Assembly: GCA_026986135.1 (NCBI GenBank)
Contig: JALSPD010000168.1
Coordinates: 1 to 24,138 of the forward strand
Length of the DNA: 24,138 nt
Direction: 5' to 3'
DNA from: DHVE2 group archaeon
GTDB lineage: Archaea; Thermoplasmatota; Thermoplasmata; Thermoplasmatales; Aciduliprofundaceae
Shown: one piece after another, positions 1 to 24,138 of the stretch
Layout of the letters: each line of letters begins with the position of its first letter
Position numbering within the stretch: position 1 is the stretch's first letter
Notes under the pieces: generated by a model
What the model saw: only the letters and a program-made list of their open reading frames with translations
What the model was told of the DNA's origin: nothing
The model's database searches: none
Position numbers and translations under genes: made by a program

Positions 1-1599
1 GATCTTGCAGAGATGATGAGTTATGGATCCAATAACAACATAACAATAATCGTCCTTTACGATTCAACCTCAAATGGAGACTCTGCTATATACAAAATTG
101 AAAAAGGAAAAAAAGTGCTGTTGAAAGATCTAGGTGAAGTGGATATGGGCGACGGAGCCACTCTTGAATATTTTCTAAACTGGACGTATAAAAACTATCA
201 CGGGATGCACTACTTTCTTGATTTATGGGACCACGGAAGTTATTACACAGGCGTATGTCTCGATCATGGAGATTGGTTGACTCTTGAAGAAATAAAAAAA
301 TCTCTGGAAAAATTCAACATTATACGTGGTAAAAGACTGGAGGTCCTTGGATTTGATGCCTGCAGAATGGGTGGCATTGAAATATACTATGCTCTTGCTA
401 ATACTGCAGATTACATAGTTGCTTCAGAGAAGGATGAGCCTGCCAATGGATGGCCATATTATGATATACTAAGTAAAATTGAAGATAAAAATCCGGAGAA
501 TGCAAGTAAACTAGTAGTGGATTCTGTATATAATTGGGCTAGAAGATTCTATACCCAAGAGGGACTATCTGTAATCATGGCCTCAGTTAATACAAGCAGG
601 ATACCCCGATTCATCAAAGATTTTAACACTGCTTTAAATAACACCATACCCCTAGGACCATATCTGTCTGATAAGATAATAAATGCAACAAAGGATGTTG
701 AAAGATACGAACTTCACAGTGTTGTAGATCTCTACGATCTCATGGAAAAAATTGAAAGCATACATGACTATAAGCTTTCCATATTGGCAAGAATAACCAA
801 AGAGAATATTGAAAACATGACATATGCAAAAGCATGGGATTGTCCGCATCCTGCCAACGGATACCATGTAAGGAACGCACATGGTATTGGAATTTACTTT
901 CCAAGTTACACGATAAATCCAGAGTATTATTTCACAGATTTTGCAAAAGATTCACTATGGGACGAATTTCTTGATTCCATATTCTACCCCCAAACAATAA
1001 AAAGAGCCTCTGGGAGAGTAAACTATACCATTGTGGAAGATACACTTTTAGTTAAATACTCATCAAACTCCAGTTATGTGGAAATTTATGTAGAAAACAT
1101 TACAAACGGATATAGTGGAATAATAGGTCCTGAGGGTAAATTTAGTATAGCCATTGGTTACGGAAGTTTTACTATATTTATTTACGGATACAATAAAAAT
1201 GGTACGGTAAACTGGTATTTTCGGGAACATATAACAAGAATGAGAAAAATATATGTGGTTGGTAAGATATATATCAATGGATACCTTGCTCAGGGTGCTA
1301 GGTTGAAAATCACCGTGGGAAACCACAGTATATGCACCATCCAAAATGAAAGTGGCTTTAATATCACACTGTATTATCCTGAGCAAATACAAGACAATTC
1401 AACTATAGATATAGAACTTAATTTTGGCTACATACACAGAGTGTACGAATGCAAATTGGGTATACTGCGTGGTAGCACCATAACACAGATAGTAATAAAA
1501 GACCAAATAACACCCAACATACTACAAATGATATCAATTTCAACTATTTTGACCATACTGGTTTTTGTTATTATAAGAAAATTAAACAGATCCGTCTAG
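1..1599 (+). CDS. Clostripain-family (peptidase C11) cysteine protease with C-terminal beta-rich domains and a C-terminal membrane anchor; 5' end lies outside the window
   Basis: Frame is open from base 1 (DLAEMMSYGSNNNITIIVLYD). Catalytic His motif LWDHGS and catalytic Cys motif LGFDACRMG are present, plus YIVASE and GWPY segments typical of C11. Hydrophobic tail ILQMISISTILTILVFVII followed by RK. Confidence 0.88.
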   Translation, partial: DLAEMMSYGSNNNITIIVLYDSTSNGDSAIYKIEKGKKVLLKDLGEVDMGDGATLEYFLNWTYKNYHGMHYFLDLWDHGSYYTGVCLDHGDWLTLEEIKKSLEKFNIIRGKRLEVLGFDACRMGGIEIYYALANTADYIVASEKDEPANGWPYYDILSKIEDKNPENASKLVVDSVYNWARRFYTQEGLSVIMASVNTSRIPRFIKDFNTALNNTIPLGPYLSDKIINATKDVERYELHSVVDLYDLMEKIESIHDYKLSILARITKENIENMTYAKAWDCPHPANGYHVRNAHGIGIYFPSYTINPEYYFTDFAKDSLWDEFLDSIFYPQTIKRASGRVNYTIVEDTLLVKYSSNSSYVEIYVENITNGYSGIIGPEGKFSIAIGYGSFTIFIYGYNKNGTVNWYFREHITRMRKIYVVGKIYINGYLAQGARLKITVGNHSICTIQNESGFNITLYYPEQIQDNSTIDIELNFGYIHRVYECKLGILRGSTITQIVIKDQITPNILQMISISTILTILVFVIIRKLNRSV

Positions 1600-2044: not shown

Positions 2045-5000
2045 TTACGAATTGTCTCCATAGCCTCTATCTGGCGTGGGAACGTCTATGAAATAACTAC
2101 CTGAGAGCACATAAGATCTCCAAGAGGCACGATAATCGCCTTTTTCTCGGTACCCGAATATAGATGATGATTCATAATTTGTATGCATCCATAAGTTGTT
2201 CACCATGTAATAAACGTTTCTCAATCGGAGATCATCATATCCATGCTGCGGAAACTCCGAAATACCCACTTTATATATAATATACCGTATCTCATTGTTT
2301 AACCATACTACAAATTCGTCTTTGGTTGGCGTTCCATTGTACCATACTGCGTAGGTGACATCTTCTTCTGCATACATAATATTTACAAAAACGCCCAGCC
2401 TAAAACCAAGCGAATCATTGTAATTAACATATATATCTTTAAGCATTTTGTGGAACACGTGGATTAAATCTTCTTGGGTGATGAGCCCTGGCCTCAACCT
2501 GGGGAAGTATTGCTTAAGATTTGAAACCGCTCCGCTATCACCTATGAAACCAAAATCCACACGGTAAACATCCTGTTTTGCTTCCACAAACATTTTCATC
2601 ACTGCACCGCCACTGGATGTGTAATACGACATCTTGTTATAAGTTATACTTCCCGGACGTATTCCAATATGAATATCAATACCATCGTAGATTCCATTAA
2701 GATTAATTTTGAAACCTGCACGCTCCATAGTGCCCATAAAGTTGAAATTGCCTTCTGAGTATTTTTCTTCTATTTTTATAGAACCAATGTCAACAGAATA
2801 ATTTTGATATCCATTGTCCTCATAAACATGTCCACCGTTAGTTGCTGTGAATACCCTCTCAAAATAGAAGAATTTTAGATGTGATGCATAGCTTCCAGCT
2901 TTGGAAAACAGACTGTTTATATCCTGAGAAACTGTGGAAAAAGCGCTTACTGAGTTATTTAATGCATCATTAGTTTTTCTGGTAGCCTCCAGAATTATTC
3001 TTTCATAGGTATAATTCCAAGCAGCCATTTCATCTTTAGCATTTATAAGAGAGAAATGGTAAAATGTAGAATATCTGTTCCACAGTTCTCCAATCTTCTC
3101 ATAGTCATAAATGAAAGTATTCAACTCCCTGCTTACAAAGAATGGGTTAAACTTGCTATCACGAGAAACCATTTTAAAGTATCCTCTTGTGTAATTGAAT
3201 GGTACATCGGTATGAAACGCCCAATTATCAGCATGTGTGCATTTATTCCAGTGGGATTCCAAGAACCATGCGCTGTAAATAGGTATTTTAAGATGCAAAT
3301 TGAATTTAACCGTGTCATTATACCATGTATACCAGTGATGACCACCGTATACCAAAGAGGTTCTATCAGTTCTCAAATTTATATCTAGATGACCAGATAC
3401 ATATACATCAATTTGGTATTCATATGGCGCATTACCCATATTATAATCAACATCCTGCACATCTACAAACCTATGTCCTGGACCCACACCAACCATGATG
3501 CTGAGGTCGCTACCTTCCTGAAGATAATCCGGCTGAAAATCAACTACAATAGTCTCGTTCTTGGTTCTCTGAGCATATTCATCAAATGTACGATTAGTAT
3601 CCCAGAAATCGTAACGTGAAAGGCGCGTGTTTGGAAATATAGGTATGGAGGAATAGTTCGCATTTAGTAGAATATTTTTAGAAAGTACATCAAGAGACTG
3701 ATACATCCATTCGGTCATATTATCCAGTAAATTGCTTCCAATCCCTCTGGAAGACATAGCCCAAGCCTTCATTAAATTTGTAAACTTTGTAGTTCCATGG
3801 TAAACATCAAGGTCCACTGTTCCGCTAATTCCTGGCACAGATCCGCTGTCCGTATATTGCCAGAACATCCAATCACTCCAAACACCTGTATTTGGGGAAG
3901 AAACACCATAATGTGCAACCCACAGGTTCCATCTTGTAAGAGAGGGATCAAGATGTCTAGCATAATAACTGGACACATAGATTATCGGTGTAACCCCCAA
4001 CCTAGATTCAACACGTTCAAGGAAAGTCTTTGCCCAATTAGATAGGGCACCCCACCCCATGCTTTCTCCAACCTCTAGATCAAGAGCTGGCGGGAGAGTA
4101 AGATAGCTCATATATGGCTGAATTGTGTCCACAAAATGATCCGCCTCAGATATTGCCGAATTGCTTGTAGGTCTTGCAAAGTGATAGGCGCCTACCTCAA
4201 GTCCTGCTGCAGATGCACCCTGAATATTTGTAACAAACATAGGATCTTTATAAGTTACACCCTCGGAAGCCTTTACATACGCAAAGGTGTATCCTGCACC
4301 AGCCACTTGATTCCAGTCAATATTTCCCTGATAATGAGATACATCTAGCCCATGAGTGCCATTGGTTAAATTACCACTGTTGTTACCACCACCGCCACCA
4401 CTGTTATTCTGATCAGTACAAGGATCATATCCAGGAGGACCTATGATTCTCCAACCTACATGCCATCTCACAAAATGGCAGAAATTGGAATCATAGGTAC
4501 CTGTATCCGTAACATAATCAAGGAATGCCCTGAGATTATTAAAGTTCTGGGCATCAAAGTTTATTGGATTGAAATAGAAATACGGGAAATTGAAATTTAA
4601 ATCAGAGATCAAGCCATTATCGCCCACCACATTTTGTCGTGCCTCTTCGGTCTGATCTTTAACGGTATTCCAGACTTCCTCTGAATCATAATCTGGAAAA
4701 GCAATATCTGCACCCGATTTCTGCCACTCCTCTAGGGTCATCTCCCAAATTATGGCTATAATATCATTATATGCATCTCTAGTAAGGTCACGATGAAAGT
4801 TAAATGATCCATTATGGATCCTGTCATAGAAAGGATATCCATCATAACCCTGTGGCCATGTACTCTGTTGATAATCTGGTGGATATGAATCACAGTCATC
4901 ATCGTAAGGACCAGCATCATCACTTGGAGACGGATCACCACCATCATATAGATTTTTCATTGCCTCGTACCACAGATCAACTGTATCACGGGTAAGGTAA

Positions 5001-6823
5001 AATAGGTATGCATCGTCATCTGTGGAATTTTTGTATTTCTTGTAAGCACCATCCATCCACCAGTACTCTTTAAGCCAGAATATACTATTCTCAAAAGTAT
5101 TAACACCATCTTCCAGTGGTCCATGAATAATATCCCGTGATCCATCCACAAGTATGGTACTTTCATCCTTTGGATCAGCAGAAATAGGTGCGTAGGAATC
5201 TCCAATTAACTGAGCCATATCATAGGCAGCATGATCTACAAATCCTTTATTTGTTACATCATCCCAGGTATCCGATCGTCTTTTCATAGATCTGGTCAAA
5301 GCATCAATAACATACCTGAAAGCATTGTAATATTCATTGCCATCAGCATAATTCCCATGCTTATCCACAAATGACTTTTTGACCAGATCATACTCATAAG
5401 TATGATAAAACACTAAAGGGATATCCGTACTTTGTGAAACACCAATTGCATGCAGAGTGAAATATTGCCTTTTTCCATCCGGATCAAGAATAAGATCAAC
5501 CGTATCAGAGACTGGATCATTATATATGGTCCATTCCATTTTAGCAGTTGCAGGAACAGTAACAACCACAGGAGGTGTGGTAAGCCATATAAGCACTATA
5601 TCAAAATCAACGCTAATGTCTGCAGTATCCATATGAGGGTATATAACCTTTGGAATTTGCAGCCATTGCCTCCACTTATCAAGATAGATATAAAGCATCT
5701 GCCTAGCCCAATCTTCTCCTTTATTTTTTATTTTACTCCAAGACATTAAAGGTTCTTTGAGAGTTGGATCTGCAAAGTATTCGTTTGCTAAATTATCACC
5801 CCAGAAAAGTCTAAAAAGTTCATAAACAAACCTATCTGCATAGCTGTACATTGCCTGGCCAATTATCTTTCCTACAGCAATCTCATCATCCACATTGTTC
5901 CACAGGAAATAAACATCTGCCGCATCAATAGTCCCTGTTCTGGCATATCTGTCCAGTATTCCACGTATACCCAAGGCATTTGCAGCATCCTCATCATAAG
6001 TATGGAAAAATCTAACACTTTGAAGCATTAATGCAAGATTCACTGCCTTCTCTACATCTTGCTTTGTTAACACCTCTGTTACTGGCACCTCAATGCCATC
6101 ATAGGCTCCGGCTGCATAGCCCTCAAGAATCCTATACTGGGCAATAGTAGTTAAAATATATCTCATCAATCTACCAAAATCACCCATATTCGTGGTAGAA
6201 CTGTTAAACTCATCAAATACAAATTTAAGTAATGGCAAAGGTGAATAAATAATCCTGTTATATTTCATCATTCTCTTAATCTCATATCCTGTGCGTTTAT
6301 CATGATACGTATAATTGACAAATCCAACCACATAGGGATAAACGGGCAGTTGCGTGCTGTTTCTGTATCCCTCCTTCCTGTTATCCAACATATAATCAAA
6401 ATTAACCCATGTTAACCTGTAACTTTTTATGAAATCCCTCGTCTTCTTATAGTCCATTACAACTTTTATGGAGAAGTTGCCGACAGTAATATTGTAATCC
6501 TGAGTTATTAGCGGAAAGGTATAATTTATATACTCAGAAAAATTCTGGAAAACATAATACTGAATCATGTATATTTTGGGATCTCTCTTCTTGGTAACAT
6601 TATGGATCACATCCATTACAATATGATACGCCTTTTCACGTACCATATCATGAACATGCCTTAGATTTTCATCAGCCTCTTCATAGAACTTTTGTACACT
6701 GTTTATGTTGTGATAGCCCAATATTGAGGCATAAATCCCAGCTAACATCAACATCAAAACAAAAATTATGGCAAACACGTATGCAAACGGTATTCTTCCT
6801 CCCTCCTTCTTTATCATCTTCAT
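2045..6823 (-). CDS. 1592-aa exported protein with a pilin-like/class III-like N-terminus and an internal GH25 muramidase (lysozyme) domain
   Basis: N-terminus MKMIKKEGG-RIPFAYVFAIIFVLMLMLAGIYASILG (charged leader, Gly, one hydrophobic helix). About 23 N-x-S/T sequons by hand count. GH25 domain at aa ~822-1010. Strong RBS, and the start is 1 nt from the upstream stop. Confidence 0.9.
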   Translation of the reverse strand: MKMIKKEGGRIPFAYVFAIIFVLMLMLAGIYASILGYHNINSVQKFYEEADENLRHVHDMVREKAYHIVMDVIHNVTKKRDPKIYMIQYYVFQNFSEYINYTFPLITQDYNITVGNFSIKVVMDYKKTRDFIKSYRLTWVNFDYMLDNRKEGYRNSTQLPVYPYVVGFVNYTYHDKRTGYEIKRMMKYNRIIYSPLPLLKFVFDEFNSSTTNMGDFGRLMRYILTTIAQYRILEGYAAGAYDGIEVPVTEVLTKQDVEKAVNLALMLQSVRFFHTYDEDAANALGIRGILDRYARTGTIDAADVYFLWNNVDDEIAVGKIIGQAMYSYADRFVYELFRLFWGDNLANEYFADPTLKEPLMSWSKIKNKGEDWARQMLYIYLDKWRQWLQIPKVIYPHMDTADISVDFDIVLIWLTTPPVVVTVPATAKMEWTIYNDPVSDTVDLILDPDGKRQYFTLHAIGVSQSTDIPLVFYHTYEYDLVKKSFVDKHGNYADGNEYYNAFRYVIDALTRSMKRRSDTWDDVTNKGFVDHAAYDMAQLIGDSYAPISADPKDESTILVDGSRDIIHGPLEDGVNTFENSIFWLKEYWWMDGAYKKYKNSTDDDAYLFYLTRDTVDLWYEAMKNLYDGGDPSPSDDAGPYDDDCDSYPPDYQQSTWPQGYDGYPFYDRIHNGSFNFHRDLTRDAYNDIIAIIWEMTLEEWQKSGADIAFPDYDSEEVWNTVKDQTEEARQNVVGDNGLISDLNFNFPYFYFNPINFDAQNFNNLRAFLDYVTDTGTYDSNFCHFVRWHVGWRIIGPPGYDPCTDQNNSGGGGGNNSGNLTNGTHGLDVSHYQGNIDWNQVAGAGYTFAYVKASEGVTYKDPMFVTNIQGASAAGLEVGAYHFARPTSNSAISEADHFVDTIQPYMSYLTLPPALDLEVGESMGWGALSNWAKTFLERVESRLGVTPIIYVSSYYARHLDPSLTRWNLWVAHYGVSSPNTGVWSDWMFWQYTDSGSVPGISGTVDLDVYHGTTKFTNLMKAWAMSSRGIGSNLLDNMTEWMYQSLDVLSKNILLNANYSSIPIFPNTRLSRYDFWDTNRTFDEYAQRTKNETIVVDFQPDYLQEGSDLSIMVGVGPGHRFVDVQDVDYNMGNAPYEYQIDVYVSGHLDINLRTDRTSLVYGGHHWYTWYNDTVKFNLHLKIPIYSAWFLESHWNKCTHADNWAFHTDVPFNYTRGYFKMVSRDSKFNPFFVSRELNTFIYDYEKIGELWNRYSTFYHFSLINAKDEMAAWNYTYERIILEATRKTNDALNNSVSAFSTVSQDINSLFSKAGSYASHLKFFYFERVFTATNGGHVYEDNGYQNYSVDIGSIKIEEKYSEGNFNFMGTMERAGFKINLNGIYDGIDIHIGIRPGSITYNKMSYYTSSGGAVMKMFVEAKQDVYRVDFGFIGDSGAVSNLKQYFPRLRPGLITQEDLIHVFHKMLKDIYVNYNDSLGFRLGVFVNIMYAEEDVTYAVWYNGTPTKDEFVVWLNNEIRYIIYKVGISEFPQHGYDDLRLRNVYYMVNNLWMHTNYESSSIFGYREKGDYRASWRSYVLSGSYFIDVPTPDRGYGDNS
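3794..4360 (-). other. Glycoside hydrolase family 25 (Chalaropsis-type muramidase) domain within the 1592-aa CDS
   Basis: GLDVSHYQG (first catalytic Asp), FAYVKASEG, GAYHFARP, ALDLE (DxE catalytic pair), PIIY, LWVAHY, WMFWQYT and G..GTVDLDV are all present in the correct order. Confidence 0.95.
4361..4411 (-). repeat. Low-complexity Gly/Asn linker (QNNSGGGGGNNSGNLTN) with an 11/12-identical 12-nt repeat, just N-terminal to the GH25 domain
   Basis: AATAACAGTGGT (4408-4397) and AACAACAGTGGT (4384-4373) flank a GGT/GGC run. Confidence 0.8.
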
Positions 6824-10800: not shown

Positions 10801-12437
10801 ATAGATGTATCGCGGGTAATATAATATGAGGTATTATCGTAAGTATATAATCCATCAGGAACCCCTATGGATACTGTAGTCTGATTGTCACATAGGTCTT
10901 CAAAAAATGGATGATCTGAATTCAAAGGAATGGTCCTTTCACTTCCAAACTTATAGTAGATAACAGTAGTTGACTCACTACCAAGCCCGGTAACAGAAAC
11001 TGATATTGTGTGCATATCTCTAACATCAAAATGAAAAGTATAAGGTCCATATCCCGCCACTCTTTTTATTACCACTGAATAGGTACCTGTAGTATCACTT
11101 AATGATAATCTATAAACCACACTTTCTATAACCCCATCACCCACATGTGCTGCGGAGGTTAAAAGTTTCCCATTGGGATCATACAGATAAACATCATAAT
11201 CAGCATTTTGATTTGGGGTCATCTGAAACACTATGGTCTGCTTAGTAGATATATCATCCTGAGTTATTTCAAATTCCCAAGTGTCCTGGGGATCATTGTA
11301 GTTGGTTTTGCCATTGTACTCCGTTATCAGATACCCGGCACCATCGCTTCCCCGTGCAACAGTTCTGGGATTATTATCAGAATCACTTTCTACAAAAAAC
11401 CATACGTCTGCCCACCCATCATCGCCACTTGTTTCTGCATATGGTGAAGATGTATCCCCACTCCATGTTTTGGTTACGGTATTATAAGTAATGGTAAAAG
11501 AACCATAATCGTCATCACCCCCACAGGCTCCCGAATCATCCTCGTAAACATGAACCGTTATCTGAACAGTATTAGCAGTAACATATGCTGTAAACGTGGC
11601 ATCTCCAGACCAAGAATCCTCATCCTCAGGACCTGTAAATGTCCAAGAAGAGCTGCCAATATAGATCCGCATATATATGTCATTACCTGAATAACAATCA
11701 GATTCGCCAGAATAGTAATCAACAATATGCAATGTAACGTTAACTCCACCTTTAGATTTATAATTAGGTGAACTTTCAGAAACTGTTTCAGGATTACTAT
11801 GAACGTTGAATGGTCCAATCATTTTGTCGTCTATGCTTTTTATCCCATATTCTATCAGATAGGCTAACCTCCAGTTATCTATTTGATTATCAAGAAGATA
11901 GCAAAGCCATTCAAGATGATCAATAAGAGTATCATTGTACCAATCTTTCATATACCAAAACCTGCTATCACCACTAGCCAATTCCTCAGCATATTTTACA
12001 CGATAACCCTCAAGGGTATTGAGCCAATGACGAACCTCCCATCTGCGGCGATTTTCCGTTAGCAATTCCCACTCATACTTTACAATATCTTTCCTTATAA
12101 ACTCTGTACGATAAACAGGTCCCGCTGTTTCATGAATTAAACGGGAAGCATATTTTTCTTCAATACAATTATTCACATTACCATCCACAAAATCTCCGGA
12201 AGAAACAGGAGTATCCTTATATAAAGAAGACATTGGATCCTGCAAACTAACCCATTTTCTAAGAGAACTCTCATTGTAGTCTTCAATATATTTTTTTAAG
12301 GACCTTAAAAATTCGTCATAGCTCATCTCGGGATGATCTGAGATAGAAGATAGATATGATGGTGTCTGATGTAATATAATACTAAATAATGTTGTGAAAA
12401 AAAGCATTGCAAGGGCAAACGATACCACACGTTTCAT
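7803..12437 (-). CDS. ~1544-aa secreted, C-terminally membrane-anchored multidomain surface protein: unknown helical domain, C2-like domain, PPC domain, lamin-tail domain (LTD), about 7 Ig-like repeats, transmembrane helix, charged cytoplasmic tail
   Basis: Signal peptide MKRVVSFALAMLFFTTLFSIIL (start moved from 12575 to 12437). LTD motif IVINEV...DEWIELYN...LNGWILTD at ~10770-10250. PPC-like ADYDVYLYDPNG at ~11300-11030. Repeated D-x-x-G-N...D-T-x-x-P motifs at ~9790-8030. TM WWIWVLLMFLLVGIVALLI followed by RRK. Confidence 0.85.
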   Translation of the reverse strand: MKRVVSFALAMLFFTTLFSIILHQTPSYLSSISDHPEMSYDEFLRSLKKYIEDYNESSLRKWVSLQDPMSSLYKDTPVSSGDFVDGNVNNCIEEKYASRLIHETAGPVYRTEFIRKDIVKYEWELLTENRRRWEVRHWLNTLEGYRVKYAEELASGDSRFWYMKDWYNDTLIDHLEWLCYLLDNQIDNWRLAYLIEYGIKSIDDKMIGPFNVHSNPETVSESSPNYKSKGGVNVTLHIVDYYSGESDCYSGNDIYMRIYIGSSSWTFTGPEDEDSWSGDATFTAYVTANTVQITVHVYEDDSGACGGDDDYGSFTITYNTVTKTWSGDTSSPYAETSGDDGWADVWFFVESDSDNNPRTVARGSDGAGYLITEYNGKTNYNDPQDTWEFEITQDDISTKQTIVFQMTPNQNADYDVYLYDPNGKLLTSAAHVGDGVIESVVYRLSLSDTTGTYSVVIKRVAGYGPYTFHFDVRDMHTISVSVTGLGSESTTVIYYKFGSERTIPLNSDHPFFEDLCDNQTTVSIGVPDGLYTYDNTSYYITRDTSIVVHFYRTPLKIVINEVSSVGSGSDEWIELYNAGTENVYLNGWILTDQDGNTYTIPDDLYYMPPGKFLIIYSGNGDNQYDFSTGYAILHTGIENMWNDDGDDVLLIYNGHYIDYMAYSRGSGDLDVDSPPSGINFTLDGSGAWGCAPAPYLGGSISLVPNGVDNDRASDWYVSNGSSATPGTSNSPLLYAVGYSRSPANVSVGARNVYLLKIKLGAIGDTVGVTNLSIELKGNATDSDITHIKLFEDENGNGEYNVGDNLVRNTTFYGGRAIFSNLGLTVDPGKEIYLFVLADITTSYLAYHHIFSVSISSSDLVPTDASTIVFTHGDVSSNATEILPVDQAPPNVVSSSVTPSIIIGGKMYVRENFTIDLLFNKDMLTNIDPGVSITSANVTKSAGYWLNSRTWRQEFVIYGKYDGEILITIAGARDTAGNRMESYSIALHVDTVPPKVLYRTNISGLVSSDFSMSFHFSEYMDTSLFPSISIDPSIITVTSRVWTTPSDLKLAFSVNMNVEGKVEIQLYGSKDVVGNSMRPYYFTVDVDTKKPAVESLVISPNITMDGKLYVRDDFDISVTYNEAMNTSIYPGVAFGDQSAFSIKSINWLDNKTALIRMSLSASISERVELTIMGAKDIAGNIQENYSFYIYADNIAPTAIISLDDKEPFGPGTVNITIQFSEEVDKNSTIFICRNSTWNHTIEGIWLSSTLWRGTVDVDYSWSSGVYEIYAVFSDTVGNTNSTSKNFTVDTDSPVAIFLEPTMKIVGHNVVNITISFSEDISPDTIHVDFGGYPVVGHWINSTLWTGRYDIKDEYGPVNITVYGAKDLAGNEMKPISKTIIVDTKGPKVSDVIYPLKVDEGEKIKITATIVDEYSNVTSAMLYYRTQDTDTYTALNMKKEGDKWVAYIPGDDVIPSKLEFYIVSYDTFGNSAESRGFEIFVTPWYLVNWWIWVLLMFLLVGIVALLIRRKMLHEKAKEIPIRGVKPKVIYRSEEVDVGDEYEDFYE

Positions 12438-12513
12438 CGTTGAAAATATAGCAAATCCCCTATTTATCACTTTCGCAAACGAAAAAATTAAACATAAAAG
12501 AGAAATACCCATT
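12438..12513. promoter_or_regulatory. Divergent promoter region: minus strand CGAAAG-T-GATAAATA (12475-12461); plus strand GAAAAAA-TTAAACAT (12481-12495)
   Basis: Both BRE/TATA-like elements lie about 20-30 nt upstream of the inferred ATGs (12437 and 12514), consistent with leaderless transcripts. Confidence 0.45.
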
Positions 12514-13905
12514 ATGGATAGAATGGTGCTAACTTCAGGATCCCAAGTAAGATATGTGGAGACAAAAAAGTTCACTATACCCCCGGAATTAAAAGTTGTA
12601 TCCCAAGATAATCCCGTAGATGTAGTTGTATGCGGTGATTACAACTCAAAATATAGGGAGATTGCTGAATACTTAGCAAAAACAATATCCCAAAATGAAA
12701 AATTCTATGCTTATTCATTTTTAAGCGGGGCAAAGATTAAGGTAGAGGGAGATGGACGTGAGGACTTTGAACCCAGATATATTGACCATTTTTCACTCTA
12801 CCATACTGTAGATAAATTGAAAAATCTTTATCTATACGCCAGCAGAATACCTAATGGATCCGTATTGTTGATTGAAGACATTGATGAACTTGTACTAGAT
12901 TATAAAATGCGCCATGATACGGTGACTGTTGAAGAGATTGTATATCTGCTTCATCAGGATCTTGTTAAAAATGGAGGATTAAACCTGGTAATCCCCACAA
13001 TCCACAAGAATATAGAGCTAATAACAATTGTTGATACATTACTCACCATAGATGTGGAAAAAATTGGTGATTATCCAATTCAGGTGATAAACATAGAACA
13101 GGTAAGAAAGAAAAAACTAAAGAAAACGTATGTAATAGGTGGCTCTGAAGGAAAATACATGTTTTATAAATCTACCGAGAAATACAAAAAAGGGAAACTA
13201 GGTATTGTATCCCCTACAAAAATGATATCTACCGGCATAAGGGATCTGGACATCTACTTGGGGGGCGGATTATCTCCAGGTACATATAATGTTATTGAAA
13301 TTAGCAACGATGTTCCCGAGGAAATTTACAATGTTATATTATTCAGCATAGCCATATCCAATATAAAATCACACCGGGGTGTGCTCCTAGCACCATCTGA
13401 AAGATTTTCAACTGAAGAATACTATAGAATAATAAAAGCACATATAGACGAGTCAGAAATCAGATTTTTAAAAATAATAAAAAGTACTCCTCTTGTTGAA
13501 AAATTGAATTACATTGTGGACGGATTTTCAAAAACACCTGAAGATAGGCATGCTATATGGAAAAGTGTTATGGAATATTTAAACAGAATAAGCGAAGGGC
13601 CGGTCTTAGATATAACAGAATACGGACCAATTGAAGCAAGGTATTCCGGAGAGGAATTAATTACTCTTGTAACTCAAGGGATAAACTGGCTTAGCGAATG
13701 GGGAGATATTGGCATTGGCATACTTCCAGAAGAAAGCGAAGTAAAAAGAAATATAATGTATTTGACAAGAAACTATCTTAAAATCTTTGATTTTCACGGA
13801 GTTTATATGATACAGAGCATTAAACCACGTAGATCCCCAAAAATTATACAGATGGGATCAGATAACAACGAAATTAATATCCGTTTAAGGAGGCTGATAT
13901 ATTGA
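12514..13905 (+). CDS. GvpD-like / RAD55-KaiC family protein with two RecA-like domains and degenerate P-loops
   Basis: IPPEL...VVVCGDYNSKYR occupies the Walker A position of domain 1. Domain 2 starts MISTGIRDLDIYLGGGLSPGTYNVIEI, the typical KaiC/GvpD start, but has no GKT. Start moved from 12394 to avoid overlap with the divergent gene. Confidence 0.7.
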   Translation: MDRMVLTSGSQVRYVETKKFTIPPELKVVSQDNPVDVVVCGDYNSKYREIAEYLAKTISQNEKFYAYSFLSGAKIKVEGDGREDFEPRYIDHFSLYHTVDKLKNLYLYASRIPNGSVLLIEDIDELVLDYKMRHDTVTVEEIVYLLHQDLVKNGGLNLVIPTIHKNIELITIVDTLLTIDVEKIGDYPIQVINIEQVRKKKLKKTYVIGGSEGKYMFYKSTEKYKKGKLGIVSPTKMISTGIRDLDIYLGGGLSPGTYNVIEISNDVPEEIYNVILFSIAISNIKSHRGVLLAPSERFSTEEYYRIIKAHIDESEIRFLKIIKSTPLVEKLNYIVDGFSKTPEDRHAIWKSVMEYLNRISEGPVLDITEYGPIEARYSGEELITLVTQGINWLSEWGDIGIGILPEESEVKRNIMYLTRNYLKIFDFHGVYMIQSIKPRRSPKIIQMGSDNNEINIRLRRLIY

Positions 13906-14594
13906 TTAAGAATTTTGAAAAATTTGATATTTTGCTTGGTGGCGGCTTTAAAAAAGGAAGCAATATTTTCTTCATAGGAAAAACATTTACTGGTGCAACA
14001 CGTTTTCCTCTCTACCTCATCTCAAAGGCACTTGAAAATGGAGAAGGTGCTGTTATTATAACAGTTGATAAACCATATACAACAATTCAAGACATACTCT
14101 CAAATTATAATAACAATTTGAAAAATCTTAGATTTATTGACCTTTATTCAATACCCACACAATTTTTGGACTTTGACTATGATGAAAATAACGTGGTTCT
14201 GTTAGAAAATAGAAAAGATCTGGACACCCTGCTGAATGTTTTAAAAAGAAAAACCTCAGAGTTTGAGAGATATAGAATAATGATACCTATTTCCTCACTT
14301 CTGCTTTTCATAGATCCTCTGGAAATGTCCAATTTTATAGAGAGGGTAAGTGCGATGGTAAGGAAAGATGGAAGTCTGGGTTTCTATATTATGAACTCTG
14401 GAATGCATGAAGAGAGGACTGTGGAACTATTTAAGCGGTTATCGGATGGGGTTATTGAATTCACTGAGAGAGAGGGAAAACATTACTTCAGAGTTCTTGG
14501 CATACCAACTGCAAAGACTACAGCATGGGTAGAGTTTCATATATTCAAAAATGAAGTAGTCATTGAATCTTTTACAATTTCCAAAATAAGATAA
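13902..14594 (+). CDS. Single-domain KaiC/RAD55-like protein with degenerate Walker motifs
   Basis: FDILLGGGFKKGSNIFFIGKTFTGAT (GKT replaced by GAT), RIMIPISS at the Walker B position, and LSDGVIEF. TTG start overlapping the upstream TGA, preceded by GGAGG. Confidence 0.78.
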   Translation: MIKNFEKFDILLGGGFKKGSNIFFIGKTFTGATRFPLYLISKALENGEGAVIITVDKPYTTIQDILSNYNNNLKNLRFIDLYSIPTQFLDFDYDENNVVLLENRKDLDTLLNVLKRKTSEFERYRIMIPISSLLLFIDPLEMSNFIERVSAMVRKDGSLGFYIMNSGMHEERTVELFKRLSDGVIEFTEREGKHYFRVLGIPTAKTTAWVEFHIFKNEVVIESFTISKIR

Positions 14595-17955: not shown

Positions 17956-17973
17956 ATAAATAGATATATGAAC

Positions 17974-18010
17974 ACCAATAAAAATGACGCCTGTGACAAA
18001 CCAATAAAAA
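17974..18010 (+). repeat. 11-nt exact direct repeat ACCAATAAAAA (17974-17984 and 18000-18010), immediately upstream of a TTTTTTAAA TATA-like element
   Basis: Read directly from the sequence; the copies start 26 nt apart. Confidence 0.7.
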
Positions 18011-18051
18011 GTTTTTTAAATGTTCACACAATGCACGAAAAGGTGTCTGAA

Positions 18052-18669
18052 ATGACTGAGCTATACGATTATGAATTCCTGTTAAAGAGAGTAAGAGATT
18101 CGCTCCCTGAAACCATAAAACATCATGAGAGATTTGAAATTCCAAAAGCGGAGGTGCTTCAAGAAGGTAAAAACACAATTATAAGAAACTTCCTTACAAT
18201 AGCTAAAAGGGTAAATAGAGATCCGACACATATATATAAATACCTTATGAGGGAGTTAGGCACTGCAGGTACTGTCCAAGGAGAAAGGCTAATACTTAAA
18301 GGCAGGATTTCTCCTTCAATGGTACAGAGACGAGTGGATAGTTATGTTCGCACATATGTGCTCTGCTCCGAATGCGGATCTCCTGACACAGAACTAAGAA
18401 AAGATGGAAGAATTGAAATATTGGTTTGCAAGGCATGCGGTGCAATGAGACCCGTTCAAGCGAAAATTGATGTCCGCATGGCCACAGAAAGCGTAAAAGA
18501 AGGGAAGATTTATGATTTAGAAATCACTGATCTAAGCAGAGACGGTGATGGAATTGCAAGGTATGGAAATTATGTAATATACGTCCCTGGCGCAAGAAAG
18601 GGCCAGAAAGTAAAAGTAAAGATAATAAAAATAAAGAAGAATATGGCGTTTGGCGAAGTAGTGAGTTAA
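18052..18669 (+). CDS. eif2b: Translation initiation factor 2 subunit beta (aIF-2beta) with a C-terminal TRAM domain
   Basis: YDYEFLLKR...RFEIP, YLMRELGTAG, zinc ribbon CSECGSPDT...CKACGA, and TRAM segment GDGIARYGNYVIYVPGARKG. The ATG at 18052 is preceded by AGGTG; upstream ATGs at 17968 and 18031 are less likely. Confidence 0.93.
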   Translation: MTELYDYEFLLKRVRDSLPETIKHHERFEIPKAEVLQEGKNTIIRNFLTIAKRVNRDPTHIYKYLMRELGTAGTVQGERLILKGRISPSMVQRRVDSYVRTYVLCSECGSPDTELRKDGRIEILVCKACGAMRPVQAKIDVRMATESVKEGKIYDLEITDLSRDGDGIARYGNYVIYVPGARKGQKVKVKIIKIKKNMAFGEVVS

Positions 18670-22385: not shown

Positions 22386-24138
22386 TTAACTTGCAAGCCA
22401 ATGAATTATATTATACATCAATTCTGCTCCGACACTGGCGTCCTTCTTCTCTACAGCCTCAAAGGAAAATGCTGTAAACACCGTCTTGAAGTTTCCATGC
22501 TGATAGGAGGCAGCAGTGATATAGCCCTTATAATCCACGAATACGGGATTTGCATCCGAGCGTATTCCAAGACGATCAGCATAGTTATGATATGGATACT
22601 TGAAGTACACCACGCCGAAATCACCGCTTATTGGATTGCCACTGAGACCATACACACGGGTATACCCAACATCATTCTGAACTTTCAATACACCAAGGTA
22701 ATCATTTGCAAATCTATTGTTCACAGCACCATCGTAACCACCGGTAACCTCCCATAGAAAGTCCTGAGATGAAAGATACAGTCTGCCACCATGTTCCAGG
22801 TACTTTATGAGATTTTGCTGGTCTTCTGGGGTAAGCGTGTATTTGTAAGTATATCCTGTACTCCATATCACAATGCCATAATTAATAAGATCTCTGTAAC
22901 TAGGGGAATAACCAATGCGATAAACATCCCATTCATAAACCTCAAACTCATTGGTCAACCCAGAATCTATCAAGGCCTGCTCAATATATTTATTCACCAC
23001 ACTTCCACCATCATCATCCACAAATAGAATCTTATTGGATAACAGTCCCGAATTAGCCGCATGCGGCGTCGCACTAACCTCATTGCTCTTATCGCTCTCA
23101 CCGTAGGAATTCACAGCGGTCACGTAGTAGTAATATGTCACTCCATTGCTAACTCCAGTATCCGTATAACTGTACGTTGAGCCTGATACCGACGCTAGGA
23201 ACGTCTCTCCACCCGATGTCGTGCCCCTGTATATCCTGTACTGCGTTATCACACTGCCTCCATTCTCACTCGGCGCAGTCCAGCTTAGCTTCACATACCC
23301 ATCTCCCGCCGTCGCCTGCAGGTTCAACGGTGCGCTCGGTGCACTGCCTCCATTGTTGCCTCCTCCGTTCATCAGCCACTCTATAATCCTCTTCATAAGC
23401 TGCGCTCCTGTGCTCGCACTGTTCTTCTCAACCGCCTCAAACGAGAACGCAGTGAATACGGTCCTGTACTTGCCTCCATCGTACCTCACTCCCGTAGCTG
23501 CTCCGCTGCTGTCCTTGAATATCACCACTCCTGATCCTACTCCCACCTCATCCGCATAGTTGTAGAACGGATAGCTTAGCGTTATGCTCCCAAATCCCCC
23601 GCTTATCGGATCTCCGCTCACTCCCTTGACCTCGCCGTAACTCTTGTCATTCGCTACACTGCTCACACCAAGATAGTTGTTCACAAATTCATTGCTTATC
23701 GCTCCATCATTCCCGCCACTCAAATCCCACAACAGATCCTGTGAACTCAAATACAGCTTCCCACCATTGTTCAAATACGCTATCAACGCATTCTGCTCCT
23801 CGCTCGTAAGCGTGTTCTCCCACATTGATCCCGTGCTCCATATCACAACCTTATACTTGCTCAGCGTGTTCGCATCAGGCGTGCCACTGCTCGCCGTGTC
23901 CCATACATCATAACCGTATCCTGCATCACTAAGTGCGCTCTTTATGTACGTATCATAATCCTTTCCCCCATCATCATCCACAAAGAGTATGTCCTTAGCC
24001 ACATTGCTCGCATGCGGCGTCGCACTAACCTCATTGCTCTTATCACTCTCACCGTAGGAATTCACAGCGGTCACGTAGTAGTAATACGTAACTCCATTGC
24101 TAACTCCGGTATCCGTATAACTGTACGTTGAGCCTGAT
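22386..24138 (-). CDS. 3' part of a large repetitive surface protein made of [fibronectin type III + ~210-aa ILFVDDDGG domain] units; 5' end lies outside the window
   Basis: Frame is open to the window edge (SGSTYSYTDTG...). FN3 segment APSAPLNLQATAGDGYVKLSWTAP...YRIYRG...YYYYVTAVNSYGES at ~23343-23064. Two homologous alpha/beta domains at ~23990-23372 and ~23030-22389. Confidence 0.88.
   Translation of the reverse strand, partial: SGSTYSYTDTGVSNGVTYYYYVTAVNSYGESDKSNEVSATPHASNVAKDILFVDDDGGKDYDTYIKSALSDAGYGYDVWDTASSGTPDANTLSKYKVVIWSTGSMWENTLTSEEQNALIAYLNNGGKLYLSSQDLLWDLSGGNDGAISNEFVNNYLGVSSVANDKSYGEVKGVSGDPISGGFGSITLSYPFYNYADEVGVGSGVVIFKDSSGAATGVRYDGGKYRTVFTAFSFEAVEKNSASTGAQLMKRIIEWLMNGGGNNGGSAPSAPLNLQATAGDGYVKLSWTAPSENGGSVITQYRIYRGTTSGGETFLASVSGSTYSYTDTGVSNGVTYYYYVTAVNSYGESDKSNEVSATPHAANSGLLSNKILFVDDDGGSVVNKYIEQALIDSGLTNEFEVYEWDVYRIGYSPSYRDLINYGIVIWSTGYTYKYTLTPEDQQNLIKYLEHGGRLYLSSQDFLWEVTGGYDGAVNNRFANDYLGVLKVQNDVGYTRVYGLSGNPISGDFGVVYFKYPYHNYADRLGIRSDANPVFVDYKGYITAASYQHGNFKTVFTAFSFEAVEKKDASVGAELMYNIIHWLAS
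23059..23187. repeat. Copy 1 of a near-identical intragenic direct repeat (C-terminal half of the FN3 domain)
   Basis: 125 of 129 nt identical to 24010-24138; period 951 nt (317 codons). Confidence 0.95.
24010..24138. repeat. Copy 2 of the intragenic direct repeat, truncated by the window edge
   Basis: 125 of 129 nt identical to 23059-23187; all 4 differences are synonymous. Confidence 0.95.

Follow-up and report, generated by a model that had tools for sequence, protein, structure and literature searches.

A linker-bounded GH25 muramidase module in a giant protein with a pilin-like N-terminus from a DHVE2 group archaeon

The complete 24,138-bp contig JALSPD010000168.1 (C168) of a DHVE2 group archaeon (assembly GCA_026986135.1), referred to here as the window, belongs to a 1.2-Mb metagenome-assembled genome (MAG) that is 71.5% complete. 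On its minus strand, at positions 2045..6823 according to the list of open reading frames (ORFs) and their translations, lies the gene of a giant protein of 1592 amino acids (aa), P0001, in which a complete GH25 muramidase domain stands between the two halves of a scaffold with a type IV pilin-like N-terminus. We found that the GH25 domain is an optional module, bounded by linkers, that has been gained, lost and relocated on this scaffold, and that it has been maintained by purifying selection with its catalytic residues intact. We consider it probable that P0001 is a surface-tethered bacteriolytic muramidase acting on the walls of bacteria that touch the archaeal cell.

The GH25 domain covers aa 825-1010, at positions 3794..4351 of the minus strand, as delimited by Pfam and by sequence matches to the Protein Data Bank (PDB) and checked on the DNA. 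Pfam PF01183 (Glyco_hydro_25) matched aa 827-999 from position 2 to position 180 of its 180 positions (E 2e-48, 165.6 bits against a cut-off of 27), and matches to the solved GH25 structures 4KRU and 1JFX (E ~1e-34) suggest that the domain adopts a (beta/alpha)-barrel-like GH25 fold. Three motifs, GLDVSHYQG (825-833), ALDLEVG (913-919) and VDLDVYHG (1003-1010), include the residues D827 (codon 4343-4345), D915 (4079-4081), E917 (4073-4075), D1004 (3812-3814) and D1006 (3806-3808, all on the minus strand), which were invariant across 20 archaeal GH25 domains. In the alignment with Cellosyl (1JFX), DVSH and LDLE of P0001 were found opposite DVSH and LDIE, the D/E residues of which we take to be the catalytic ones of that structure. 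N-x-S/T sequons, which occur in the scaffold halves at 13-20 per 1000 residues, numbered 0 in the GH25 module; this may reflect a bacterial origin of the module or a need to remain unglycosylated. An earlier note on this DNA, made from its letters alone, had described an intact bacterial-type GH25 domain at 3794-4360, with all its catalytic motifs, in the middle of a giant archaeal protein with a scaffold of ~1400 aa. The full-length Pfam match and the invariant D/E residues confirmed the intact domain, the back-translated coordinates fell within the range given and the mid position was right; the size had to be corrected to a protein of 1592 aa, made of ~1360 aa of scaffold and ~236 aa of linker-GH25-linker (aa 796-1031).

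As GH25 is mainly a bacterial and phage family, and the overall GC content was 0.45 in the GH25 segment versus 0.37 in the scaffold, one could suspect a bacterial contig or an assembly chimera. This explanation was effectively refuted. The GH25 segment and the scaffold had the same GC content of third codon positions (GC3, 0.34-0.35), and the flanking genes are archaeal, coding for aIF2-beta, a CTP-dependent riboflavin kinase, RNase HII, Lhr and KaiC-like proteins. Colinear full-length homologues of P0001, with 53-78% identity, 1547-1601 aa and the GH25 domain at the same position, were present in 10 other assemblies (ENA, NCBI and JGI), and the closest of them lies in a locus (L147) whose gene order is syntenic with the window. 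Because the same gene with identical junctions was seen in all these assemblies, a chimera is ruled out; the sequencing run of a second study also contained 80% of the sampled DNA words of the P0001 gene. The DNA runs listed as containing this gene came from a hydrothermal vent metagenome, probably its source, and from this second study, and no RNA run was listed. The contig is archaeal and the P0001 gene is not a chimera, in agreement with the opinion previously formed from the flanking genes.

The GH25 module is under purifying selection. P0001 was compared with its homologue in L147 and, as synonymous sites were saturated, the proportion of nonsynonymous differences (pN) is reported against that of synonymous differences (pS) and no dN/dS is given. 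The pN of the GH25 module was 0.18, with a saturated pS of 0.84, and that of the N-half, the C-half and the upstream linker was 0.10, 0.19 and 0.29, respectively, the linker being the fastest-evolving segment. A pN that is far below the saturated pS and close to that of the scaffold C-half, together with the equal GC3, indicates a constrained module of long standing. Decay is frequent among horizontally acquired genes (PMC4241558), and from this general tendency, in favour of which we found nothing specific in P0001, the domain might be regarded as a decaying relic or as a non-catalytic module for glycan binding or adhesion. We judge this very improbable in view of the low pN, the full-length Pfam match and the catalytic residues conserved in all 20 copies.

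Searches with BLAST and with profiles revealed three architectures on one scaffold: GH25 in the middle, in the clade of the window; GH25 at the C-terminus, in P0010/G075, P0033 and G119/G112; and no GH25, in P0013 and in a paralogue (C5) of G119. In the tree of the scaffold N-half the proteins with a mid GH25 formed a single fully supported clade, the sister of which was the C-terminal type of P0010/G075. P0033, with a C-terminal GH25, and P0013, without GH25, were 88% identical over 996 aa. The two G119 paralogues C1 (L017 5345-10156) and C5 (L130 386-4507) were 93.7% identical over 1372 aa and constitute a natural plus/minus pair, given that C5 stops after these shared 1372 aa whereas C1 goes on with ~19 prolines and then a C-terminal GH25. 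The junction alignment showed that the mid insertion is exact: the inserted segment lies between ...V-G-x-R-I-I-G and x-x-L-L-D-N-M-T-E-W, and in scaffolds without a mid GH25 the same ...V-G-x-R-I-I-G is directly followed by x-G-K-L-M-D-N-M-T-x-W. According to this alignment, the module of P0001 is preceded by a low-complexity Gly/Asn/Ser-rich linker (aa 796-824, 4352..4438, minus strand), which scaffolds without a mid GH25 do not have, and followed by a second linker (aa 1011-1031, 3731..3793, minus strand); in the versions with a C-terminal GH25 the linkers are poly-Pro or Gly/Ser. GH25 is, then, an optional linker-bounded module of the scaffold. A wider reading of the scaffold as a carrier of polymorphic effectors beyond GH25 was unsupported, as no other enzymatic payload was found on 25 distant scaffold members, which carried LTD, PKD, Big_5, GEVED and CARDB domains only.

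The low-complexity linkers on both sides of the GH25 module, as well as a predicted extracellular clostripain-like C11 peptidase that is a conserved convergent neighbour in the window and in L147, might also suggest a scaffold that serves as carrier or pro-protein, from which the GH25 domain is cut out at the linkers as a free secreted lysozyme. We regard this as unlikely, because release from a mid position needs two cuts and severs the scaffold, and because the C11 neighbour is not kept at the other loci.

The MAG of the window is in the same family as genome G013, which carries the published Aciduliprofundum boonei lysozyme gene, and the caution that the domain may not be new in this lineage was therefore well placed. 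That gene was reported with 1725 bp (Metcalf et al. 2014, eLife, PMC4241558), the same length as the 574-aa ORF of G013; its GH25 domain killed Bacillaceae and Paenibacillaceae in vitro, and it was induced in co-culture (PMC4241558). The A. boonei protein (UniProt B5ID12) consists of a transmembrane segment, GH25, Amidase_6, two SH3_3 domains and a second transmembrane segment, and the lysozyme of a congener (G066, 591-630 aa) is arranged in the same order with SH3_3 repeats. The earlier note had asked whether P0001 is orthologous to the published copy, and an orthologue extended by annotation or by lineage-specific additions could be imagined from the shared host family, from the presence of a single GH25 in every one of the four family genomes and from the grouping of the GH25 modules of both architectures in the best tree (support 78/91). 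At the level of the gene the answer is no, and such orthology is highly improbable. The alignment between P0001 and the A. boonei protein was confined to the GH25 module (51% identity), and GH25 was the only Pfam domain of P0001, without Amidase_6 or SH3_3. No flanking gene was common to the window and the lysozyme loci of A. boonei and G066, and the profile of the scaffold N-half had no match in the two complete Aciduliprofundum genomes. The RNase HII neighbourhoods of A. boonei and G066 differ from that of the window, and rearrangement is too extensive there for the cassette to which the P0001 gene belongs to be scored cleanly as present or absent. The MAG holds only one GH25 (genome scan, 172 bits), which in the genus of the window (g1) is in the middle of the scaffold; in Aciduliprofundum (g2) the GH25 is of the lysin type, and in the third genus (g3, G075) it is at the C-terminus of a scaffold whose gene, divided between two contig ends, closely matches that of P0010 and is nearly identical to it. 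It would be wrong to take every GH25 of DHVE2 archaea for the gene of Metcalf and co-workers. In three genomes of another family of the class (G178, G136 and G171, family f17) GH25 was found in frames of ~1000-1300 aa (L006, L008 and L012) with an Amidase_6-like and SH3-like region N-terminal of it, an order that is the reverse of that of A. boonei; the same genomes have a GH25-less scaffold elsewhere.

The history of the module was analysed in a careful tree of 87 GH25 domains drawn from the matches listed in the contig scan. All Thermoplasmata copies fell in a clade of 71 rows (support 91/99) together with many metagenomic sequences and a few MAG sequences of Bacteroidota, Planctomycetota and Verrucomicrobiota, and the sampled Bacillota were outside it; inside the clade the topology was without resolution. 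In the best tree 18 scaffold-borne and A. boonei-type rows made up one side of a branch with support 78/91, not starred. By the approximately unbiased (AU) test neither the monophyly of the mid-type GH25 (p 0.30) nor that of all scaffold-borne GH25 (p 0.36) was rejected. A quick tree of 262 rows joined the mid-type to the P0010/G075 domains with a value of 96 in the Shimodaira-Hasegawa-like approximate likelihood ratio test (SH-aLRT), a grouping that agrees with the scaffold tree. As a possible, weakly supported history, these data are compatible with one archaeal origin of the GH25 modules followed by domain shuffling. Among the matches listed, two nearest relatives were P0035, which is probably archaeal because it adjoins a deoxyhypusine synthase gene, and P0032, the context of which is ambiguous.

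The scaffold is far more widespread than its GH25 module, and neither this breadth of a pilin-like family nor the optional character of GH25 on it had been recognised in the earlier note. In a sample of 201 genomes of the class (77 genera), searched with a profile of the scaffold N-half (A1), the family was present in 109 genomes and 44 genera, in open frames of ~1200-2500 aa, and GH25 in 12 genomes. P0001 begins with a class-III-like (type IV pilin-like) signal and its only hydrophobic helix (aa 1-38, K-K-E-G-G-R-I-P-F-A..., positions 6710..6823), the single hydrophobic segment being at aa 8-38. This is followed by the scaffold N-half (aa 39-795, 4439..6709), which corresponds to profile A1 and was modelled confidently by AlphaFold2 (AF2) at aa ~330-800, and, beyond the module, by the C-half (aa 1032-1592, 2048..3730), with a helical bundle and beta-rich domains and a confident AF2 model at aa ~1232-1582; all three are on the minus strand. 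The N-terminus of the scaffold relatives has charged residues and Gly/Ala, then R/K/Q-V-P-F-A and the hydrophobic helix, and the motif D-x-x-G-R-V-P-F-A-x-V-A-V is conserved across the class. Several members have canonical leaders of the type K-A↓Q-I or R-G↓Q-M (the arrow marks the cleavage site). Pfam DUF7286 was recognised in three relatives (L128, L127 and L130), at profile positions 2-63 of 1000 only, that is, in the N-terminal ~60 aa (one with 28.6 bits against a cut-off of 27), and P0001 had no match to DUF7286 even at E<=5.

P0001 has about twice as many N-glycosylation sequons as the mean of its shuffled sequences (25 versus 12.1, sd 3.2), and its cytoplasmic neighbours have 0-3.4 per 1000 residues. 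The single N-terminal hydrophobic segment, this enrichment in sequons and the LTD, PKD, Big_5, CARDB and GEVED domains of distant relatives point to an extracellular, envelope-associated location of P0001. In the AF2 models of both scaffold halves about half of the residues were confident. PDB fold searches with these models gave no match, in keeping with the previous description of the scaffold as one of unknown fold, and no solved structural relative was found; searches against the AlphaFold database (AFDB) clusters and the Atlas gave nothing informative, the AFDB matches being family members labelled 'Lamin tail domain-containing protein'.

The P0001 gene follows three other genes on the minus strand. 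Immediately upstream lies the gene of a small pilin-like protein of 174 aa (P0026, 6825..7349, alignment A5) with the leader ...E-R-A↓Q-S-A-V-V-D, the stop of which is 1 nucleotide (nt) before the P0001 start. It overlaps by 10 nt the gene of a second small pilin-like protein (P0027, 7340..7822, alignment A6), of 160 aa from the conserved start and with a G-F-F-E-E motif. The first gene of the cassette codes for a giant surface protein of ~1545 aa (P0002, 7803..12437) in which Pfam recognised LTD and Big_5/Ig-like repeats; it has a C-terminal transmembrane segment (hydrophobic at 1528-1556) followed by a charged tail, and a twofold enrichment in N-glycosylation sequons. The longest ORF of P0002 starts at a GTG (12575) and overlaps a divergent gene, and we take the ATG at 12437 as the probable conserved start. 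Two small pilin-like genes, with leaders R-A/G↓Q-S-x-x-x-D (P0026) and G-F-x-E-E (P0027), precede the scaffold genes in at least 5 families of the class, and the stops and starts of the small genes and the giant gene overlap or abut. The LTD giant upstream of the scaffold is kept in L020 and L147, and not in G119, G112 and L148. P0026 had a weak match to TadE (E 0.076), its Atlas model resembles DUF7284 (TM-score 0.72), and DUF7287 and DUF7288 are among its feature neighbours.

Taken together, we favour as the probable function of P0001 that of a giant glycosylated extracellular protein which would be held at the cell surface by its one N-terminal pilin-like hydrophobic helix. In the lineage of the window a complete GH25 module with its flexible linkers was inserted at one exact point between the scaffold halves, and in sister lineages the module is C-terminal or absent. 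As the host makes no murein, the substrate should be bacterial peptidoglycan, and the enzyme, presumably active, might be used upon cell contact against competing bacteria and/or for feeding on them. A. boonei belongs to a lineage of peptide-fermenting vent heterotrophs, which fits antagonism as well as feeding, and so does the bactericidal action measured for the A. boonei domain. Several points weigh against this interpretation. The leader of P0001 itself (G-G↓R-I-P-F) is a non-canonical class-III cleavage motif, so that processing of this type can be proposed only with caution, and the sole Peptidase_A24 match in the MAG reached 25 bits, below the cut-off of 26.5. A muramidase tethered to its producer would need close contact with the prey, and the scaffold fold offers no functional clue. 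None of the loci examined had a secretion ATPase or platform gene next to the cassette, and those that came nearest were ~22-28 kb away (G171 and G119). In favour of a pilin-like character, the MAG does encode homologues of T2SSE and T2SSF (FlaI/PilB-like and FlaJ/PilC-like), on contigs C60, C7 and C26, none of them linked to the cassette.

A more specific version of the same interpretation, which we hold to be possible and rather doubtful, is that P0001 serves as tip subunit or minor pilin in a filament resembling a type IV pilus, that the two small pilin-like proteins act as its primers, and that GH25 is displayed at the tip to attack bacteria in a contact-dependent way. With P0002 included, the genes of the cassette correspond to the models of archaeal pilin sets, in which small minor pilins are accompanied by two large proteins, one with a signal peptide ('adhesin or minor pilin') and the other S-layer-like and anchored at its C-terminus (Makarova, Koonin and Albers 2016, PMC4858521). 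The three consecutive genes with pilin-like N-termini, conserved as a trio in at least 5 families, agree with it, as do the weak TadE match of P0026, the likeness of its model to DUF7284 and the DUF7286 matches at the N-termini of the giant relatives. However, ATPase and platform genes are not linked to the cassette, a major pilin was not identified in it and the cleavage motif of P0001 is not canonical. Moreover, class-III signals are also found on surface proteins that do not form filaments, such as those of the Sulfolobus bindosome. Beside the more probable surface-tethered muramidase, we put forward tentatively that the products of the cassette, P0001 and the small proteins among them, assemble into a short pseudopilus or a type IV pilus-like filament, with the giant protein at its tip, armed with the muramidase in DHVE2-type vent archaea.

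The remainder of the window contains further genes. The clostripain-family (C11) peptidase gene (13-1599, plus strand) is convergent with the giant gene and keeps this position in L147; with ~30 N-glycosylation sequons per 1000 residues its product is probably extracellular and could process surface proteins. Divergent from the cassette is a pair of KaiC-like genes (12394-14594, plus strand; 503 and 230 aa), only the second of which matched Pfam KaiC (E 1.5e-9); the pair is kept beside the cassette in L147 and not at the other loci. A homologue of aIF2-beta, with an eIF-5_eIF-2B domain and a C-terminal TRAM domain (Pfam E 5e-15), is encoded at 17968-18669 (plus strand). At the contig end a truncated gene (22386-24137, minus strand) codes, in a stretch with a GC content of 0.51 versus ~0.37, for a repeat-rich protein; it was 58% identical, with internal repeats, to a 1476-aa protein beside the GH25 fragment on contig C60 of G075 (L019 2736-7166).

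Few cases of direct antagonism of archaea towards bacteria have been documented, the A. boonei GH25 lysozyme being the first, to which a survey of 2025 added lysin-like hydrolases. At the P0001 locus an enzyme of this kind has a very different setting for its delivery, as part of a giant pilin-like surface protein from a conserved, uncharacterised cassette that about half of the genomes sampled in the class possess. It gives a first functional handle on the scaffold family, as one that is extracellular and would face other cells, and the mid, C-terminal and absent GH25, including pairs 88-94% identical with and without GH25, are natural contrasts for the contribution of the module. It also raises the idea that vent archaea kill, or feed on, bacteria in a contact-dependent manner. 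If the armed filament tip were real, it would be a contact-dependent antibacterial or prey-lysing nanomachine in Archaea, on a scaffold of about half of the sampled Thermoplasmata-class genomes.

Neither the occurrence of GH25 in DHVE2 archaea nor that of peptidoglycan hydrolases in Archaea at large is new (PMC4241558, PMC12352652). In the literature searched we did not find described a GH25 domain fused to a giant pilin-like scaffold, the gain, loss and relocation of this linker-bounded module, or the breadth of the scaffold cassette. Term searches found no mention of 'type IV' or 'pilin' in the main text of PMC12352652, nor of lysozyme or hydrolase in a 2026 survey of type IV filaments, and literature searches on DUF7284 to DUF7289 found nothing.

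Among known systems, the gene set resembles archaeal type IV pilin sets (PMC4858521), bacterial TadE/TadF/TadG and the combination of minor pilins with PilY1, and P0026 has its weak TadE match; for the archaeal sets the likeness is one of gene-set composition, of which membership in described arCOG or Pfam families is not part. They differ in that no enzyme payload is described there and in that our cassette has no adjacent ATPase or platform gene. The archaeal proteins of Pfam DUF7284-DUF7289 are related in appearance through the DUF7286 matches at the N-termini of scaffold relatives, the resemblance of the P0026 model to DUF7284 and DUF7285 and language-model neighbours that include DUF7286, DUF7287 and DUF7288; in contrast, P0001, P0026 and P0027 were without a match to these Pfam families, and the similarity to DUF7286 is limited to the first ~60 of 1000 model positions. 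Polymorphic toxin carriers of bacteria (CdiA, Rhs and MafB) likewise have a large conserved surface scaffold in near-identical copies that differ in a linker-attached effector module, but there is no homology, GH25 is the only enzymatic payload here and an immunity gene is neither needed nor seen, which makes the comparison one of analogy only.

As for the enzyme, the bacterial and phage GH25 muramidases (Cellosyl, 1JFX; the clostridial autolysin, 4KRU/4KRT) match the catalytic domain of P0001 along its entire length, and the catalytic Asp and Asp-x-Glu fall in register; they are small secreted enzymes or endolysins, none of which is embedded in a larger host protein. The archaeal modular peptidoglycan hydrolases (PLoS Biol 2025, PMC12352652), found in ~5% of archaeal genomes, are also encoded by archaea, of bacterial origin and reported to be prominent in Thermoplasmatota, and differ in their lysin-like architectures of catalytic and wall-binding domains. 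The A. boonei lysozyme has in common with P0001 the host family, the type of GH25 module, all the catalytic residues and bacterial peptidoglycan as the presumed target; it is a 574-aa amidase/SH3 protein, whereas in P0001 the GH25 module stands midway in a 1592-aa pilin-like scaffold encoded at another locus.

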